Positions 4,393-18,493 of a DNA stretch of 20,000 bases are shown one piece after another. Source of the stretch: an uncultured virus (IMG/VR IMGVR_UViG_3300044640_001752) (Duplodnaviria; Heunggongvirae; Uroviricota; Caudoviricetes); the IMG/VR virus record IMGVR_UViG_3300044640_001752; one strand, written 5' to 3'. The position numbers and the translations under genes are program-made. The first letter of the stretch is position 1, and the number at the start of each line of letters is the position of its first letter. The notes beneath the pieces are model-generated. The model worked only from the letters and a program-made list of their open reading frames with translations, made no database searches and was not told the DNA's origin.

Positions 4393-4410
4393 TTATTGGA
4401 AAATTGTCGA

Positions 4411-5589
4411 ATGAAAATTGCAATAGTAGGTGCAGGTATTAGTGGAATTATGGCTGCTTACTATCTGGTTAAAGCTGGGCACAACATCACAGTCATTGAT
4501 CAAGAAAGATATGCAGCCATGCGCACTAGTTATGCCAACGGCGGCCAAGTGTCTGTATCAAATAGCGAAGTTTGGAACACCTGGAGTAATGTAAAAAAGG
4601 GTGTCAAATGGATGTTGCGTAAAGACGCACCCTTGTTGGTCCGACCCAAATTTGAATGGGACAAAATCAAATGGATGACCAAGTTTTTGTACCATACAGT
4701 TCGAGGTGATTATGCAACGAATACTGCAGCGACTATTTGCTTGGGACTCGAGTCACGCAAGTTATATCAAGACTTGATCAACAACGAAGGTATTGCAAAC
4801 TTTGATCAAGCCAAGTGCGGAATCTTGCATTTTTACAAAGATCAACAATACTTTGATGCAGCCATACAAGCAAAAGACTTGTACGAATCAAACGGGTGCG
4901 AATGGAGTATCATGGACGCTCAAACTGTTGCTGCTACTGACCCTATGCTCATGGCCAGTGGTGTTGTAGGTGGTGCCTGGACTGCCGGTGACTGGGTTGG
5001 CGACATGCATAAATTTTGTCATCAGTTGTGCGAGGTATTAAATGAAAAATATGGTGTTGAATTTCATTATAACTACAAATTAAACGACTTAGAATCTCTG
5101 ACAATACAGTATGACGCAGTGGTAGTATCAGCCGGAGTTGGTTCAGTTCATTTGGCCAGCAGCATCGGCGATGTATTACCTATCTATCCTATCAAAGGCT
5201 ACAGTATCACTATCAACAATGTTGATCCAGAATTGTTGCCTCGTACCAGTTTGTTAGATGATCAAGCTAAAATAGTAGCCTCGCCTTTGGGCAATAGACT
5301 GCGTGTGGCCGGCACTGCGGAACTTACAGGTGAGAACTATGACATACGCAGAGACAGAATCGAACCTTTGTTGAATTGGGTACATGAAAATTTACCACAA
5401 ATCAACACAGATGATTATCAATCTTGGGCATGTCTGCGTCCAATGACCCCCGACATGATGCCCATAATACAACAAAGTCAAACAGACTCGCGAGTGTTTT
5501 ATCATACTGGTCACGGTCATTTGGGATGGACAGTTAGCCCCGCAACAGCAAAACAGTTGACACACTTGATAGAAACTGCTATAATCTAA
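4411..5589 (+). CDS. dadA: FAD-dependent D-amino acid dehydrogenase (DadA-like)
   Basis: ATG at 4411 gives MKIAIVGAGISG (Rossmann GxGxxG). Also TSYANGGQ, IYPIKGYSIT, RLRVAGTAE, WACLRPMTPD and TGHGHLGWT, all DadA-like motifs. Confidence 0.85.
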   Translation: MKIAIVGAGISGIMAAYYLVKAGHNITVIDQERYAAMRTSYANGGQVSVSNSEVWNTWSNVKKGVKWMLRKDAPLLVRPKFEWDKIKWMTKFLYHTVRGDYATNTAATICLGLESRKLYQDLINNEGIANFDQAKCGILHFYKDQQYFDAAIQAKDLYESNGCEWSIMDAQTVAATDPMLMASGVVGGAWTAGDWVGDMHKFCHQLCEVLNEKYGVEFHYNYKLNDLESLTIQYDAVVVSAGVGSVHLASSIGDVLPIYPIKGYSITINNVDPELLPRTSLLDDQAKIVASPLGNRLRVAGTAELTGENYDIRRDRIEPLLNWVHENLPQINTDDYQSWACLRPMTPDMMPIIQQSQTDSRVFYHTGHGHLGWTVSPATAKQLTHLIETAII

Positions 5590-6152: not shown

Positions 6153-6176
6153 AAAAAGCCCCTAAGGGGCTTTTTT
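6153..6176. terminator. Bidirectional rho-independent terminator
   Basis: AAAAAGCCCC-TAA-GGGGCTTTTTT between two convergent genes, with an A-run and T-run flanking a GC stem. Confidence 0.9.
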
Positions 6177-6177
6177 A

Positions 6178-6927
6178 TTATTTCTTAACAAACAAGAAAA
6201 ACAATCGGTCTTGGTCTTTCTTCATCAACTCTAATGTAAGTCCGTGTGTTTTGGCCAGTTCGTGGGCTACTTCAAAACTCCAGGGAAATATTTCCACCCA
6301 CGGACCTTTGTTGGGAGTTTTAACTCCGTCGTGATCTAGCCCGGGATTGGCCCTCATCCACAGTTTACCTCCTGGCTTCAGCAATTCAACAGTCTTTCGA
6401 AATCTAATTTCAATGTCATCGCGACTGTTGAAATTGATACTGCCCAATGCAATGACATGGTCAAATGATTCTGGTTCTACATTGTAGTCAAGAATATCAA
6501 TCATGAAGTCTGCACAATTGTTATAAGGATCAATACCTACTAGATTGGGAATCCTTTCTTTAAATGGATTGTATCCGCAGCCTACATCTAGTACTTTAGC
6601 AGGCTTGGTCTTGTTGATTTCGTCAGCGATTCTCCAGCCGGTCCAGTGATACATGTCGGTTCTGGGTTTCCATGCTTCACCAAAAAACCAAGCCAGGTAT
6701 TGATCGTCGGTGCGATCGACCAGCTGTGCAACAGTGCCTGCAACATCAATTGCGACCCCAAACGTGCCTTCGAGGTCTGATTTGAATTTTTGCTTTTTCA
6801 CAGGAGTCCACGGCAGAGAATCTAATAATGTGTCTGCCTCTAGCGATTGTCTAATTGCACTGTGTTTGGGTAAATTCCAAGTTTCGTGTAATTTTTTTAC
6901 AATATGATTAAAAATTTTGCTATTCAT
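6178..6927 (-). CDS. Class I SAM-dependent methyltransferase with N-terminal extra (possibly ACP-like) domain
   Basis: VLDVGCG (motif I), VGIDP, ESFDHVIALGSINF, LLKPGGKL. Likely start is ATG 6927 (MNSKIF); the 21-aa extension to 6990 runs through AT-rich intergenic DNA. Confidence 0.85.
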   Translation of the reverse strand: MNSKIFNHIVKKLHETWNLPKHSAIRQSLEADTLLDSLPWTPVKKQKFKSDLEGTFGVAIDVAGTVAQLVDRTDDQYLAWFFGEAWKPRTDMYHWTGWRIADEINKTKPAKVLDVGCGYNPFKERIPNLVGIDPYNNCADFMIDILDYNVEPESFDHVIALGSINFNSRDDIEIRFRKTVELLKPGGKLWMRANPGLDHDGVKTPNKGPWVEIFPWSFEVAHELAKTHGLTLELMKKDQDRLFFLFVKK

Positions 6928-6946
6928 AGATTTTTTATAAAAAAGG

Positions 6947-6952
6947 TAAATA
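6947..6952 (+). promoter_or_regulatory. Possible T4-like late promoter core (TAAATA) upstream of the Bug/TctC operon
   Basis: GTAAATAAAT in the divergent intergenic region; resembles T4 TATAAATA, but the region is AT-rich. Confidence 0.35.
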
Positions 6953-7031
6953 AATTTACAAGACAGCAAAAAATTTTGTGTCTGTGACAATATCTAACTA
7001 TATATATCATAAATCTTGACAAGGAAAAATA

Positions 7032-8021
7032 ATGAAAAACTTTTTATCTGCTCTCCTGTTGGCAGCGGCAGCAATCGTACCATTTGCTGCTGCAGCTTGG
7101 GAACCCATCAAGCCAGTCACAGTGTATGTAGGCAATACTCCCGGGGCCGGCAACGAACTTGCATTTAGAAAATTAGCCGAATTGGTTCAACGCAATAATC
7201 CCAAATTTGTATATGTAGTACAAAACATTCCAGGTGCTGACAGTGTTATAGCACAGAACAGATTTCTTGATGCTGCACCAGATGGATACACTGCCAATTT
7301 GCCCAGCCATATGAGCACGTATGTCACCAACGATATATGGCAAAAAGATATTAAAAAGTTCAAATACAATGATTTTACTGATGTGCTGACCATGGGCAAA
7401 AGTCCACTGGTGTTGGTTGCCAGTCCTCGCAGTATGATAAACACTCCTGAAGATTTTATAACACTGATCTCGACTACTAAAAAACCCATCAGTATTGCAA
7501 CAGGTGGCGGTGCTCATAGAACTGCATTTGAATATCTCATGTACCGTGGGCAGGGAAACAAAGATCTGGTCAGGCCCATCAGATTCAATGGACCGTTGCC
7601 AACTGTTACCAGTGTGGCTGCATTTGATGGCAAATCTGGCACTGAATTTGGAATCATGCCAATTGCAGTTGCCAAGCCGTTGCTGGACGCGGGTAGAGTA
7701 AAAGCCATTGGATTTACTGGCAATAGAAAAATGGATCAATATCCCAAGATACCTTTATTAAATACTGTTGCTCCTGGTATCAATGTATATGCTGCTTGGT
7801 CCTTGCAGTTGCCACCTAACACCCCCGGTGACATTGTTGATTGGTATCAACGCGAGTTCTCTAAAGCAGTGCGTTCTGCAGAATACAAAGAATGGATGGA
7901 AAATCAAGTTGTATTTTATGAAGAATCAGAGTTAAAACCAGAAGGATTACGCAAACACATGAACGAATTGAGAGCCACATTTATACCTGTGTTAGAAACT
8001 ATTGATTTGACCAAAGAATGA
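7032..8021 (+). CDS. Bug/TctC family tripartite tricarboxylate transporter periplasmic substrate-binding protein
   Basis: Signal peptide ending AAAA-W; WEPIKPVTVYVGNTPGAGNE (cf. KPIxxxVPFxAGGxxD); VVQNIPGA, AAPDGYT, PLVLVA, GRVKAIG, YPKIP, PPNTPGDIV; 329 aa; AAGGA SD. Confidence 0.88.
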   Translation: MKNFLSALLLAAAAIVPFAAAAWEPIKPVTVYVGNTPGAGNELAFRKLAELVQRNNPKFVYVVQNIPGADSVIAQNRFLDAAPDGYTANLPSHMSTYVTNDIWQKDIKKFKYNDFTDVLTMGKSPLVLVASPRSMINTPEDFITLISTTKKPISIATGGGAHRTAFEYLMYRGQGNKDLVRPIRFNGPLPTVTSVAAFDGKSGTEFGIMPIAVAKPLLDAGRVKAIGFTGNRKMDQYPKIPLLNTVAPGINVYAAWSLQLPPNTPGDIVDWYQREFSKAVRSAEYKEWMENQVVFYEESELKPEGLRKHMNELRATFIPVLETIDLTKE

Positions 8022-8638
8022 AATACATCTTTATGGCAGGCGCTCCTGGATCCAAATGGTCCAGTGTGAGCAAGAACATTTATTTCAGCCCCGACATTGA
8101 TCGCACAGATTCTTCGTCTGCACGTGAGTATTGGCACAGTGCCTGGGGAGAACCTTTGTTGATGCACATGGGTGCATATTTTGATCCTGGCATGGAGTTC
8201 GGCGACCATTTTGATCGGTTGGATCAATATAGTCGTGAAGAAAACGAACAAGAGTTTGATAGACCGTTTTCTGGAACAGGTGTACGCATCATCAAGAGTC
8301 ATGTATTTTCACATCACATTGACTATCTAAAGCAGACATGGCCCGACTGCCCTGTAGTGTTAGTAGAGCGAGACGACGATGCTTGCCTAGGGTGGTGGGT
8401 CAAATGCGGTCACTTTGGTATTACCTATCCTGACTATGCTGAATACTATCAAAATCTTCCTGTAATGGCTCGTCGCATCTATAATCAAAATCAAGACATA
8501 CGCTTGGCACGTGAGAGATATTCAGGAAAAACAATCAATTCCAATGTAGTATTGGCAGCTCGTCTATACATTGCTACACCGCCGGAAGAGTATTTTCAAA
8601 GGTACGCCGAATATGATATCAAGGTAACATTAATATGA
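8018..8638 (+). CDS. Divergent sulfotransferase-fold / P-loop-like protein
   Basis: YIFMAGAPGSKWSSV resembles the 5'-PSB loop (IFIxGxPRSGT); IIKSH; WPDCPVVLVERD resembles the 3'-PB region; ATGA overlap with the upstream gene. Confidence 0.55.
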   Translation: MKYIFMAGAPGSKWSSVSKNIYFSPDIDRTDSSSAREYWHSAWGEPLLMHMGAYFDPGMEFGDHFDRLDQYSREENEQEFDRPFSGTGVRIIKSHVFSHHIDYLKQTWPDCPVVLVERDDDACLGWWVKCGHFGITYPDYAEYYQNLPVMARRIYNQNQDIRLARERYSGKTINSNVVLAARLYIATPPEEYFQRYAEYDIKVTLI

Positions 8639-9291
8639 AAAGTTCATGGGACTACACAAAAGCTCAAAGTCAGTATCATTTTGATTCAACCATAATGGAT
8701 CCGGCATACGATACAGTTATTAGACTGGGTCGTATTTCTCCTACGTGGGATACAGATCTTGCTGATATTGTCAGCAAATCAAAACCGGCAACATGGGCCA
8801 CTAGAGGATACAAGGGAGAAGGTGTCGAAGTTCCGTCTGCAGATCTCGAAGCCGAACGGCACGATATCGAGCGTGTCGGTGCAGATCCCGACATGATCAT
8901 CACGCACTTGAACTGGGTTATCCCCGATAGCTTACAAAAGATCAGTGATCTTTTTGGCTTAGATGATTGCATGAACCGCATACATGTACAACGACCTGGG
9001 GAAGTTTGGAATTTACACATAGATAAATTACAGAAATGGTGCCCGGAAGACCCCAGCCGTATCATGCGTATTATGATTCAATTAACTGACTGGCAACCTG
9101 GTCAATTCTGGGCATACGGCAACTATCATTATAATCAATGGCGTGCCGGTGATGTAACTACCTTCGACTGGGCAAATGTACCACACAGCACAGCCAATAC
9201 CGGGCACTATCCACGTGTGACATTTCAGATAACTGGTGTACGCACAGCCACGACAGACAAATTCCTCGAAGAATTGCAAAATTTACATTAA
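8635..9291 (+). CDS. 2OG-Fe(II) dioxygenase-like cupin (Asp/Asn beta-hydroxylase-like)
   Basis: PGEVWNLHIDK (HxD), WRAGDVTTFD, VPHSTAN (distal His), PRVTFQITG (2OG-binding Arg); ATGA overlap with the upstream gene. Confidence 0.75.
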   Translation: MKSSWDYTKAQSQYHFDSTIMDPAYDTVIRLGRISPTWDTDLADIVSKSKPATWATRGYKGEGVEVPSADLEAERHDIERVGADPDMIITHLNWVIPDSLQKISDLFGLDDCMNRIHVQRPGEVWNLHIDKLQKWCPEDPSRIMRIMIQLTDWQPGQFWAYGNYHYNQWRAGDVTTFDWANVPHSTANTGHYPRVTFQITGVRTATTDKFLEELQNLH

Positions 9292-10407
9292 ACAATTTTG
9301 TCGAATGAATGTTTCCACCAGGTTAGGATTGTTGCAATCTAAACAGGTGCCGTCGGACAGCAACACCATGTCGGCATCTATTCTTATTAAATGCTTGGGC
9401 GATCCCAGTTTGGATTTATAATTTAGATAATACGTGTCTTGATTTAGCTCGTAGATATACTGCTTTGCTGGCATCTTGTACAAATCATGCCTATCTGGTT
9501 TTATTGACTTGGGTCTGTCAGACAAGCTCCACAATTGATATTCGTCGCAATTGAACCACGGCATATAATTTTGTTTATATTGATTGTAGTTTGCAGTGTT
9601 TTTGATTGGAAATTGATTGTACCATATCAGCAGATGTTCTACCCAATGAAAATTAAAGTTAATCCACCAAAATAAATCGCCTATAGTAACAACTTCTATT
9701 CCTGCTTCGTGAATGTTTTGTGTCAATGAATCGTAGTACTCGACTGCTTGTTCTTTTGACATGTAGTTAGTTAGAAATTCAATAAACTTGCCACTGGTTT
9801 CTCTAAGAGATTTTTCCAAAGAACCAGCGCCGTACACTAATTCAAACTCAATAGCAATATTGACTATCCACAACTTATCTGCTGGTTCCCCATCAGTTAC
9901 AATATATTTGTCAAATACAGATTGTATGTCTTTGTTAGAAAAGTTTTTGAAATTTATAGTTTTTAATTGATATTGTTCTATCACTGAGTGATAAAATATT
10001 GGATTTTCAAAGTAACTCTGATTGTTAGCAAAGATTGTGATATTTTTTAGATCTGCTGTATCAAAATGTTTTATTATAGCCGATAATGCCAGGGTACTAT
10101 CTATTCCGCCTGACCAAAAAATAGCCAGTGGCAGATTTCTTTGCTGCATTGTTTTTTTAATTTCGATAGCTCTAGCGTCAGTTACTTCGCTAAAACTTTT
10201 GTTAAAACATTGCATCAATGGAGGACACGATACATAATCTGGATCATGATAAAAATTCCAAATCTTCGTTTTTCCGTATCTGGCACTGGAGATTGATTCA
10301 CATCCTGGCCAGAATTTTTGGTCAGCTAACAAAAATGTTTTCAGGCGTGCTTGTAGATCAATCGGTAACAAATTATAAAAATCGAAAGAAATTCGCAAAG
10401 GCTTCAT
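9283..10407 (-). CDS. PP-loop adenine-nucleotide alpha-hydrolase superfamily protein (asparagine-synthetase C-terminal-domain-like)
   Basis: AIFWSGGIDST (SGGxDS PP-loop), VTDGEPADKLW (cf. AsnB SGEGADEL), late YKMPAKQYI; no recognisable N-terminal glutaminase domain. Confidence 0.75.
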   Translation of the reverse strand: MKPLRISFDFYNLLPIDLQARLKTFLLADQKFWPGCESISSARYGKTKIWNFYHDPDYVSCPPLMQCFNKSFSEVTDARAIEIKKTMQQRNLPLAIFWSGGIDSTLALSAIIKHFDTADLKNITIFANNQSYFENPIFYHSVIEQYQLKTINFKNFSNKDIQSVFDKYIVTDGEPADKLWIVNIAIEFELVYGAGSLEKSLRETSGKFIEFLTNYMSKEQAVEYYDSLTQNIHEAGIEVVTIGDLFWWINFNFHWVEHLLIWYNQFPIKNTANYNQYKQNYMPWFNCDEYQLWSLSDRPKSIKPDRHDLYKMPAKQYIYELNQDTYYLNYKSKLGSPKHLIRIDADMVLLSDGTCLDCNNPNLVETFIRQNCLM

Positions 10408-16973: not shown

Positions 16974-17278
16974 ACGAACGAATTGAACAACTTGCTGGCC
17001 AGTTAGGTCCTGTTGCAACAATTGGTGATTGGGGCAGAGTTGAATGGGCAGATAACGTATATCCACAATTGGGTGATAAGATGTATGCGGCTGTTGACCT
17101 GGCAAAGTTCGCCGAGTTGATTGTTCGAGAATGTGTGGACATTGTTAAACACAACATATATGAACCCGACTATCGTGGGGGTAGTCAGATTCTAGAATCA
17201 TTTGAAAATTATCAAGCAAATCGTCGAGCAGAAGATATTCTCAATCAGATTAAACAACATTTCGGAGTTGAAGAATGA
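16951..17278 (+). repeat. 23-bp exact direct repeat AACATTTCGGAGTTGAAGAATGA at 16951-16973 and 17256-17278
   Basis: Read directly; encodes HFGVEE* and also provides the GGAG SD and ATG of the downstream gene. Confidence 0.9.
16970..17278 (+). CDS. Small phage protein, MNERI..LA...KFAELIVREC...HFGVEE family, copy 2
   Basis: 102 aa; shares N-terminal, central and C-terminal motifs with copy 1. Confidence 0.8.
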   Translation: MNERIEQLAGQLGPVATIGDWGRVEWADNVYPQLGDKMYAAVDLAKFAELIVRECVDIVKHNIYEPDYRGGSQILESFENYQANRRAEDILNQIKQHFGVEE

Positions 17279-17820
17279 GTCTAAAAGACATTACTAAAGA
17301 CCTCCATCACGAGGCAGAAACAACAACATTTGCTAAGATGTTACTCAGCGGCAAGATTGGTCGAGAAGATTACAAAAACTACCTGTATAACTTACTGGCA
17401 ATCTATGATCCTATTGAATGGTATTGCAAACGGCAAGGCTTTCTTGACACAATGCCGGGCCTTCCTCGCTTGAAAGGTATTTTAGCAGATTTCTTGGAGT
17501 TAGATGACGGCACCTATTGTTATCTAACTCCTGCTACCTTAGAGTATCAAGCCTATCTACACCAGCTAGGAAATGATGCAGACCGCAAACAGTTAGTCAA
17601 AGCTCATTTGTATTGCAGACACATGGGAGACCTGTTTGGTGGACAGATTATCAAGAAGCAAGTGGCACACATCAGCAGTGGCAAGTTTTATGACTTTGAA
17701 AATGGCGATGTTATGAAGACAGCCATTCGCCAGACACTTACAGACGACCTGGGCGACGAGGCTCGTGTGGCATTTGAGTATGCTATTAAAATGATGCGAG
17801 ACCTACACCATGGAGAGTAA
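17275..17820 (+). CDS. hemO: Heme oxygenase (HemO/Ho1-like)
   Basis: LKDITKDLHHEAE (proximal His helix), YLYNLLAIY..IE, AHLYCRHMGDLFGGQII (distal helix signature), DEARVAF. Confidence 0.92.
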   Translation: MSLKDITKDLHHEAETTTFAKMLLSGKIGREDYKNYLYNLLAIYDPIEWYCKRQGFLDTMPGLPRLKGILADFLELDDGTYCYLTPATLEYQAYLHQLGNDADRKQLVKAHLYCRHMGDLFGGQIIKKQVAHISSGKFYDFENGDVMKTAIRQTLTDDLGDEARVAFEYAIKMMRDLHHGE

Positions 17821-18493
17821 TGTATGGAACACGCTGATTAAAATCGAACAACAGCTGGAAGCTGCATTTTATGCTTCTGGCAGTATCATCCAAGAACCCG
17901 GCATGGATCGATTCAATCAACCAGGCTGGATCAACAAAGTGTGGACCAGCAGTCAGTATCGTCGGGCACACATTGATGTGGTAGACGCTCGAGAAACACG
18001 AGGACTGTGGATGATGCACTGTTGCGTATTTCCTCACTTGGACAATCCTGCACCTATTTTTGGATTTGATGTCATAGCCGGCAAGAACAAGATTACCGGC
18101 TGTTTTATAGACTACAGCCCAGCTGGCGATATTGATCATGCTATGATTGAATATTTTGGTAAAGAAGTGAGCCGATACGAGTGGAACAAGAAGCGAGTCT
18201 TACCAGAATGGGCACAGCGTATTTTTAGTCCGCACATGGTTGCAGCCGGCAATGTCAGTGACGAAACTGAGCTGAATCAAATCGCTAGTTTGGCAGGTAT
18301 ATTGGTCGATCATTATATCAAATGCGTAGGCGAAACAAGCGGCACTGTCGAAAACACTCGAGATTCTCAGAACTTCTATGCACAAAATCAAAAGCAAAAT
18401 CCACATACTCCAAAAGTAATGGTTAGTCTTGGGCTTAGTGAAGAAGATGTACAACTGTTTATACAAGAATGTTTGTTTCCTGAAATACAATAA
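17810..18493 (+). CDS. pcyX: Ferredoxin-dependent bilin reductase, PcyX-like (PcyA family)
   Basis: EPGMDRFN..GWINKVW, YRRAHIDVVD, GLWMMHCCVFP, APIFGFDVIAG, DYSP, LPEWAQRIFS, QNFY..NQKQNPHT, FIQECLFP. Asp rather than Glu at the PcyA Glu76-equivalent position, plus NPH, match PcyX as recalled. Confidence 0.8.
   Translation: MESNVWNTLIKIEQQLEAAFYASGSIIQEPGMDRFNQPGWINKVWTSSQYRRAHIDVVDARETRGLWMMHCCVFPHLDNPAPIFGFDVIAGKNKITGCFIDYSPAGDIDHAMIEYFGKEVSRYEWNKKRVLPEWAQRIFSPHMVAAGNVSDETELNQIASLAGILVDHYIKCVGETSGTVENTRDSQNFYAQNQKQNPHTPKVMVSLGLSEEDVQLFIQECLFPEIQ

Follow-up and report, generated by a model that had tools for sequence, protein, structure and literature searches.

A conserved phage cassette of uptake, sulfotransferase-fold, dioxygenase and methyltransferase genes in uncultured giant aquatic phages

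Organisation of the locus

The window studied here, a stretch of 20,000 nucleotides from an uncultured Caudoviricetes virus (IMG/VR record IMGVR_UViG_3300044640_001752), holds a block of four genes encoding a Bug-family (TctC-type) binding protein, a sulfotransferase-fold protein (ST), a putative Fe(II)/2-oxoglutarate (2OG) dioxygenase and a predicted class I S-adenosylmethionine (SAM) methyltransferase (MT), which belong to a conserved cassette that is widespread in uncultured giant aquatic phages (Table 1). The virus record that holds the window is a 73-kb fragment, and relatives of this phage reach 330-525 kb at 95-100% completeness (CheckV). The arrangement given in the first-pass annotation of this DNA was confirmed: MT diverges from the other three genes across a gap of 104 bp, counted from an MT start at 6927, ATGA overlaps join Bug to ST (8018-8021) and ST to the dioxygenase (8635-8638), and the block is flanked by a hairpin on the left and a convergent gene on the right. 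The three overlapping open reading frames (ORFs) read as separate, translationally coupled genes and not as fused ones. For MT, ATG 6927 is most likely the start rather than TTG 6990, given that 20 of 20 aligned homologues begin MNxKI, and the hairpin, which lies between MT and an upstream Sm-like gene, is probably an intrinsic terminator-like element serving both directions. The block has a GC content of 40-44%, the same as the window, and dN/dS is approximately 0.04-0.16 in seven pairwise comparisons, in most of which dS is near saturation; the four genes are real, intact and under purifying selection.

Table 1. Features of the cassette and its borders, in window coordinates
Feature	Position	Strand	Remarks
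Terminator-like hairpin	6153-6175	.	10 pairs, 5 of them G-C; A-run before, T-run after
Methyltransferase (MT)	6178-6927	-	predicted class I SAM methyltransferase, 249 aa; core partner of ST
MT N-terminal ~75 aa	6703-6927	-	degenerate acyl-carrier-protein-like subdomain (suggestive only)
TAAATA, phage promoter-like motif	6947-6952	+	divergent gap, 85 nt before Bug start
Bug ORF	7032-8021	+	329 aa
Sulfotransferase-fold (ST) ORF	8018-8638	+	206 aa
Dioxygenase ORF	8635-9291	+	218 aa
Convergent gene	9283-10407	-	overlaps 3' end of dioxygenase ORF

The family assignments proposed for these genes fared unevenly. That of the binding protein to TctC lies above the Pfam cut-off, the matches of MT and ST fall below theirs, and the dioxygenase has no relevant Pfam match at all; because Pfam was weak or silent for ST and the dioxygenase, their folds were checked by structure prediction. 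Bug, ST and the dioxygenase are all without a PHROGs family, and sequence searches of the PDB with ST, dioxygenase, MT and the diiron protein described below returned nothing significant.

Conservation and co-occurrence

The genes of the cassette occur together far more often than expected by chance. A scan of IMG/VR confirmed 224 relatives of ST, of which the best 80 were kept, shortened contigs included, and at these 80 loci a dioxygenase was found 77 times, MT 61 times and a Bug-family gene 59 times. A pooled set was then reduced from 320 loci to 279 with ST, 145 with enough flanking sequence and 83 after dereplication at 90% identity. Nearly all of these 83 ST loci are from phage, and within 5 kb of ST they carry MT (77), a dioxygenase (74) and an uptake gene (67), with all four roles filled at 57; because ST, MT or the diiron gene served as the seed for each pooled locus, the counts of these genes, that of MT included, are biased upward. 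Among loci seeded with MT that have at least 5 kb upstream (59 of 80 fetched), ST is present at 51, the dioxygenase at 50, Bug at 43 and TctA at 11, and among those seeded with the diiron gene and longer than 12 kb (50 of 80) there are 48 with MT, 45 with ST, 38 with the dioxygenase, 36 with a second ST-like gene and 35 with a glutaminase. The suggestion that the window carries a compact, conserved phage module for handling a small molecule is supported.

The core of the cassette consists of ST and MT. Distances between ST proteins correlate with those between their MT partners (Mantel rho 0.37, p 0.002), and a profile search of 1.84 billion representatives returned 345 relatives of ST, with six ST-MT fusions among the 150 listed. 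All six fusions match the MT profile (E 1e-50 to 1e-17), and one of them, P0129, is 39% identical to MT over 194 aa. The dioxygenase and Bug distances are weakly correlated (rho 0.24, p 0.008). ST is a single-copy gene in all five near-complete genomes.

The ST family comprises 4,066 clusters at 90% identity, and yet among 50,697 GenBank phage records there was no close copy of ST and just two distant matches, both in one marine virus single-cell assembly, so the trait is common in large aquatic phages and has gone unnoticed in isolates. The diiron protein likewise has no match in GenBank phages. Nothing on this cassette was found in the literature searched, which consisted mostly of papers outside subscription, and viral tctA appears in the available parts of two reports solely as an unexplained domain match in SUP05 contigs (PMC4164917, PMC6359870).

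Predicted folds and active sites

The AlphaFold model of ST (pLDDT 88) suggests a tyrosylprotein-sulfotransferase-like fold with an altered site for the donor 3'-phosphoadenosine 5'-phosphosulfate (PAPS). The five best structures in a comparison with this model (VIA) are sulfotransferases at Z 9.7-11.4, headed by tyrosylprotein sulfotransferase (TPST)-1 at Z 11.4 with a root-mean-square deviation (rmsd) of 3.5 over 168 residues; neighbours of ST in the Atlas bear the name sulfotransferase, and the Pfam match to Sulfotransfer_3 has an E of 0.0095. PAPS sulfotransferases canonically carry a 5'-phosphosulfate-binding (5'-PSB) loop P-[KR]-S-G-T-T, a catalytic KxH and a 3'-phosphate-binding Arg followed by Ser. 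ST belongs to an unnamed family; it has a PGSKWSS loop and conserved H50, K93-S94-H95, R118, W126-W127 and YPxY, and across 99 sequences K93 is conserved in 85%, H95 in 98% and R118 in 75%, with Gly or Trp at the Ser position. ST resembles the TPST/STF9/olefin-synthase/Cpz8 branch of PAPS sulfotransferases in fold, in the Lys and His of KxH and in the Arg of the 3'-phosphate strand; it differs in having approximately 12% identity to that branch, an altered 5'-PSB loop, no 3'-phosphate Ser, and WW and YPxY motifs that are conserved in its own family.

For the dioxygenase, the model (pLDDT 94.7) predicts an Fe(II)/2OG double-stranded beta-helix with an intact HxD...H triad and a 2OG-binding Arg, and H128-x-D130...H184 and R194 are invariant in 37 sequences. 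Its closest folds are those of amino-acid beta-hydroxylases as judged from the model, with proline 3-hydroxylase at Z 12.1 (rmsd 2.9 over 146 residues) and cis-4-hydroxylase at Z 10.8. The assignment of MT as a class I SAM methyltransferase draws on a Pfam match at E 6e-5 and on DVGCG (motif I) together with GIDP and D144, which give the acidic residues expected after strands 2 and 3; all are invariant in 20 aligned sequences; an ALGSINF motif is also present. Weak matches to tRNA methyltransferases and CmoB (E 9e-4 and 0.03) raise a role in tRNA or DNA modification, which was set aside because uptake genes and an amino-acid-hydroxylase fold do not fit it.

The N-terminus of MT may be a degenerate carrier-protein-like subdomain, which is suggestive only. 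Its hhalign score was 20.7 compared with a mean of 9.9 and a maximum of 19.8 for 200 column shuffles, at a probability of just 12%; the probability rises to 63% for two divergent MT relatives that lack the LPW motif, and the MT relative at locus L095 matches AcpM at E 0.015 and keeps the D-S. In phage MTs the phosphopantetheine Ser is absent and LPWTP stands invariantly in its place. PF00550 found no match in four phage genomes, and the Atlas gave no usable match for this region.

The uptake slot

Bug matches PF03401 at E 2e-19 (70.4 bits against a cut-off of 27) and 11 binding proteins of tripartite tricarboxylate transporter (TTT) systems in the PDB at E 4e-10 to 2e-6. It is the only one of the four cassette proteins with a hydrophobic leader: residues ~1-22 resemble a signal peptide, with a 12-mer of hydrophobicity 2.68 within the first 30 aa and an AxA-W end, as judged from hydrophobicity and motif rather than by a dedicated predictor. 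Bug shares its TctC fold family, leader peptide and pincer loops with known TTT systems (BctCBA, BugD/E, Bug27, SlcHFG, TphC), and differs from them in being phage-encoded, in having a variant pincer (GNE for xxD) and in being either an orphan or replaced by TctA with a divergent binding protein. The variant motif reads GNTPGAGNE against the reference P-F-x-A-G-G-x-x-D (PMC5812351), and PG[AS]GxE/D is found in 130 of 146 phage Bug-family proteins. Bug is diverse, with a median identity of 57%.

At the 83 dereplicated loci Bug is present 54 times and TctA (PF01970, E 1e-83) 10 times, and the two never occur together. No TctB was seen in the TctA versions, where the permease is paired with a binding protein of 353 aa that is divergent. 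A sodium symporter fills the same slot at L105 and L162 (by Pfam) and L222 (by profile), and an SsuA-type ATP-binding cassette (ABC) system does so at the bacterial locus L086. The uptake slot is therefore interchangeable and Bug is a replaceable part. Since unrelated importer families replace each other beside the same enzymes, a small diffusible substrate is the best explanation of the slot.

Cellular relatives and phylogeny

A metagenome scan with high-GC relatives of ST recovered five loci (L084, L085, L086, L090 and L095) that we infer from GC and gene content to be cellular. The ST-MT pair is kept in all of them: the order is sulfatase-ST-MT at L085, ST-MT at L084, binding protein-ST-MT at L090 and ABC ATPase-MT-ST at L095, and L086 holds a CoA-ligase-like gene, ST, a sulfatase, an SsuA-type ABC system and MT. 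Named relatives of ST occur in Actinomadura (A. vinacea, WP_344587399), Janthinobacterium (J. lividum, WP_152615373), Desulfobacterales and Bacteriovorax, to which the window ST is 37-46% identical in local alignments. In a tree of 51 rows, the window ST falls in a clade of 13 (support 97/96) together with the remaining 11 freshwater phage rows and a single unplaced representative, and L085, L086, Actinomadura and Janthinobacterium form a separate clade (99/92); the root of this tree is arbitrary, so we claim no direction of transfer. A scan of GTDB, which reaches close relatives only, found no matching bacterial operon; its single match was rejected as a cellular copy, being a phage contig inside a Haliscomenobacter metagenome-assembled genome. 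Plasmids gave no match with distant ST or AcmG-like sulfatase queries. Neither of the two outcomes that the first-pass annotation had set against its own proposal was found: the genes do co-occur, and widely, in other genomes, and they are not a catabolic operon recently captured intact, the window ST belonging to a phage clade at some distance from bacterial relatives.

Expanded versions of the cassette

Larger versions add a second ST-like gene, a fusion of adenosine 5'-phosphosulfate (APS)-kinase-like and adenylyltransferase domains, a diiron ferritin-like protein (named rubrerythrin by JGI) and a glutaminase resembling amidate hydrolases. Diiron and glutaminase genes are tightly associated, with 24 joint occurrences (p 5e-10), and the presence of a second ST-like gene tracks that of the APS-kinase/HxGH fusion (p 6e-5). 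The fusion, a 280-aa protein with APS-kinase-like and NMNAT-like HxGH domains at L018 (7927-8769), is present in four of five near-complete genomes and is split into two separate genes at some loci. The window is probably a reduced form of this larger cassette, given that L016, L021 and L024 share its nrdB-glutaredoxin context and yet keep the diiron gene.

Other genes were also observed at these loci. A cupin of about 221 aa adjoins the second ST-like gene at several loci that are without an uptake gene (L123 6696-7364, L267 5002-5664, L278 7248-7913); its best PDB match is 9ug7 (E 5e-4). Low-GC versions, likely from marine phage (L088, L089, L119, L144), have at least two copies of ST and a truncated AMP-binding enzyme of ~230 aa, and L088 also carries a B12 radical SAM protein. 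A distant relative of ST adjoins an amidinotransferase-like gene at L082 (8615-10804), in a marine virus record that bears psbA, and similar neighbours occur at L034, L162, L196 and L238.

A possible function and its alternatives

We tentatively favour a reading, to which we give slightly less than an even chance, in which the cassette brings a small anionic acid into the infected cell, where its enzymes hydroxylate, sulfate and methylate the acid. Exported Bug would capture a carboxylate for a host TctAB-type permease, or for phage TctA in other versions; the dioxygenase would add a hydroxyl, probably to an amino-acid-like substrate; ST would sulfate the hydroxylated substrate, or attach to it a related group taken from a PAPS-like donor, with the donor supplied by the host or by the phage APS-kinase/adenylyltransferase fusion; and MT would methylate the same intermediate. 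The order of hydroxylation, sulfation and methylation is the one that the folds give naturally. The window would represent the minimal form, to which larger forms would add an oxidation and nitrogen branch through the diiron protein and the glutaminase. What the analysis shows are the genes and how they are conserved, their folds, the fusions of ST with MT and an uptake slot whose occupant can change; the import and enzymatic steps are deduced. The cassette is real, widespread and uncharacterised, but each of its enzyme classes is already known and its logic was predicted earlier for bacterial operons. Iyer et al. (2010) predicted operons of a beta-hydroxylase, MT, sulfotransferase and PAPS synthetase, with the same proposed logic of hydroxylation followed by sulfation and methylation (PMC2938197). 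Those operons differ in being bacterial, in co-encoding collagen-like or tail-collar proteins and in having phytanoyl-CoA-hydroxylase/MT fusions, and Bug and TctA go unmentioned in the part of that text compared. Should the product of the phage cassette be a small sulfated metabolite, phages would themselves be a direct source of organosulfur compounds, equipped with uptake systems of their own. The small single-domain enzymes and named bacterial relatives make the question testable.

A number of observations weigh against import followed by tailoring. With regard to ST, Foldseek returned nothing at E <= 0.001, though Cpz8 and TPST ranked first, and kinases come soon after the sulfotransferases in the fold list, uridylate kinase having Z 9.1 compared with 11.4. 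The loop that dominates in its family is PGS[KR]WS and not the canonical 5'-PSB sequence; compared with the TPST and SULT motifs, Gly stands in place of the 5'-PSB Arg/Lys, a Lys/Arg follows two positions on, and a different residue occupies the site of the 3'-phosphate Ser. None of the accessory genes (APS-kinase-like, second ST-like, diiron, glutaminase) is on the 73-kb contig of the window, itself a fragment. At 16 of the 83 loci there is no uptake gene within 5 kb, and of six pairs of distances only ST-MT and dioxygenase-Bug are significant: ST is uncorrelated with Bug (Mantel rho 0.04, p 0.3, 38 quartets), as are ST with the dioxygenase and MT with the dioxygenase or Bug. Given the loci without an uptake gene and these uncorrelated pairs, the parts of the cassette are shuffled and Bug could serve something else. 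Finally, the pooled counts and the Fisher and Mantel tests are uncorrected for phage relatedness.

The main rival, which we consider possible but rather unlikely, is that the enzymes decorate a macromolecule, hydroxylating, sulfating and methylating virion tail or fibre proteins or a host surface glycan, with the transporter bringing in 2-oxoglutarate, a sulfur source or some similar cosubstrate. The best folds for ST are those of protein tyrosine sulfotransferases and prolyl and aspartyl protein hydroxylases rank just under the free-proline hydroxylases, and the weak covariation of dioxygenase and Bug also fits, as does the TAAATA motif that precedes both the cassette and the PAAR operon. Hydroxylation followed by sulfation of collagen-like or tail-collar proteins is what was predicted for the bacterial operons (PMC2938197), but no such gene is among the recurring neighbours here, it is only in the lineage of the window itself (15 of 80 loci) that PAAR and 627-aa genes come after the cassette, none of the enzymes carries an export signal, and the genes that accompany ST-MT at the bacterial loci are for a sulfatase, a CoA-ligase-like protein and an ABC importer. 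Signalling fares less well. Systems of the arbitrium type have a signal gene, an intracellular receptor or regulator, and covarying pairs. An arbitrium-like signal had been among the options offered by the first-pass annotation, and was not upheld: no regulator or sensor family is among the recurring neighbours, and neither ST nor MT covaries with Bug. A diffusible phage-to-phage signal made by the enzymes and sensed by Bug, whether arbitrium-like or for lysis timing, is in our view very unlikely; the diversity of Bug is in its favour, as are the ability of BctC-type proteins to signal via a sensor kinase of the host and the frequency of orphan Bugs in betaproteobacteria (PMC5812351), but true permeases (TctA, sodium symporter) replace Bug and the 16 loci without a nearby uptake gene retain the enzymes. 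We give hardly any credence to the idea that the module is catabolic and scavenges nutrients, releasing sulfur or carbon from a compound that it imports. TTT systems do import catabolic substrates, sulfolactate included (PMC5812351), and the bacterial loci hold sulfatase and SsuA-type genes, but the folds of MT and ST are those of enzymes that build compounds up, all five near-complete phage genomes lack the sulfatase, and the GTDB scan, which reaches close relatives only, found no matching operon in bacteria.

Links to sulfamate and phosphoramidate pathways

The bacterial loci connect ST with the sulfamate antibiotics. The acm and nuc clusters need sulfotransferases, MT, rubrerythrin-like and amidinotransferase-like proteins (PMC4257720, PMC10946740), with nucG, I, J, K, L, N, O, P and Q and PAPS genes needed for the sulfamate (PMC10946740), and the S-N step is called unknown in PMC9113183. 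From the published primers for the acmG knockout (PMC4257720) we deduced two AcmG peptides, both of which are matched, in the correct order and spacing, by the sulfatases of L085 (9/12 and 8/12) and L086 (6/12 and 10/12). Among 3,371 ORFs, L085 ranked top for the first peptide and L086 and L085 were the top two for the second. The sulfamate-gene link is thus judged, from these short matches, to be real for L085 and L086 and indirect for the phage, given that an AcmG-like sulfatase adjoins ST at these two bacterial loci and was absent from five of five near-complete phage genomes and from an IMG/VR scan, which covers close relatives only. Two sulfotransferase-like genes and MT, rubrerythrin-like, amidinotransferase-like and APS-kinase classes recur around ST as in the acm and nuc sets; the acm table, as available, differs in listing no Bug and no protein named dioxygenase, and protein lengths differ.

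The glutaminase points to a second nitrogen-heteroatom pathway, that of O-methyl phosphoramidate. In four of four accessory glutaminases the best NCBIfam family is gamma-glutamyl-CDP-amidate hydrolase, at E 6e-20 to 6e-14 and 53-72 bits, far below the cut-off of 250. The Campylobacter pathway (Cj1415-Cj1422) contains this nearest family and shares APS-kinase-like, nucleotidyltransferase and MT classes with the phage sets, but its PEP-utiliser glutamine kinase (PF00391) was found in none of ten phage records, five of them near-complete, with the control detected in 14 of 14. The host could supply such a kinase.

Taken together, these links allow an account in which the cassette builds or transfers a sulfamate (S-N) or phosphoramidate group: the glutaminase would free the amidate from a glutamyl carrier, the kinase/adenylyltransferase fusion would make a 3'-phospho-nucleotide donor, the altered ST would transfer the group and MT would methylate it. 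We regard this as unlikely. The AcmG peptide matches, the recurring acm/nuc-like classes and the family of the glutaminases speak for it, but the likeness is at class level only, the 120 best homologues listed for ST include no Streptomyces protein named Nuc or Acm, NucK (356 aa) is a sulfotransferase of the canonical kind, and AcmQ has 155 aa compared with 231. The AcmG-like gene and the glutamine kinase are missing from the phage records scanned, as noted, and the window itself is without the diiron/glutaminase branch. A broader idea, speculative and probably wrong, is that giant aquatic phages run a secondary-metabolite pathway of their own, in which the full cassette would make an S-N or phosphoramidate compound by way of a new PAPS-analogue donor and the altered sulfotransferase, importing a precursor or recapturing the product with its own transporter. 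Were this true, phages would be making a bioactive small molecule, and the sulfamate step in nucleocidin and ascamycin, still unsolved, would gain a compact model.

Regulation and neighbouring genes

The TAAATA motif in the divergent gap resembles a T4 late promoter. Of 132 distinct regions upstream of MT, 117 contain the motif (shuffle mean 34, maximum 48) and 77 its complement (shuffle mean 32), an enrichment that suggests back-to-back phage promoters. On the window's own contig, 19 of 92 ORFs have TAAATA in the 110 nt before them, and the PAAR operon and nrdA are among these. Sharing of the motif suggests phage-directed, probably later-stage expression, which would not be strictly late since it also precedes nrdA.

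The convergent 374-aa PP-loop gene was considered as a cassette member and rejected, being present at 5 of 80 loci. PP-loop/asparagine-synthetase-like genes such as this one also lie downstream of the dioxygenase at L026, L036 and L042, and in other phages a related family of 397 aa accompanies a second Bug paralogue, which is very divergent. Elsewhere in the window, a Cys-rich 188-aa protein with a signal-peptide-like start and no Pfam or PHROG family lies between nrdA and a class II aldolase (2043-2609), and a D-amino-acid dehydrogenase-like flavoprotein (PF01266, E 1e-59), kept in only some relatives, lies between nrdB and glutaredoxin (4396-5589). A heme oxygenase (PF01126) is followed by a ferredoxin-dependent bilin reductase (PF05996) at 17275-18493, a phage bilin-synthesis pair that is presumably hemO/pcyX-like. 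Outside the window, translations of contig G000:C1 named by eye include a long run of glycosyltransferase- and methyltransferase-like genes at about 10700-21700 and an IscU/IscA-like pair at 48224-48920.

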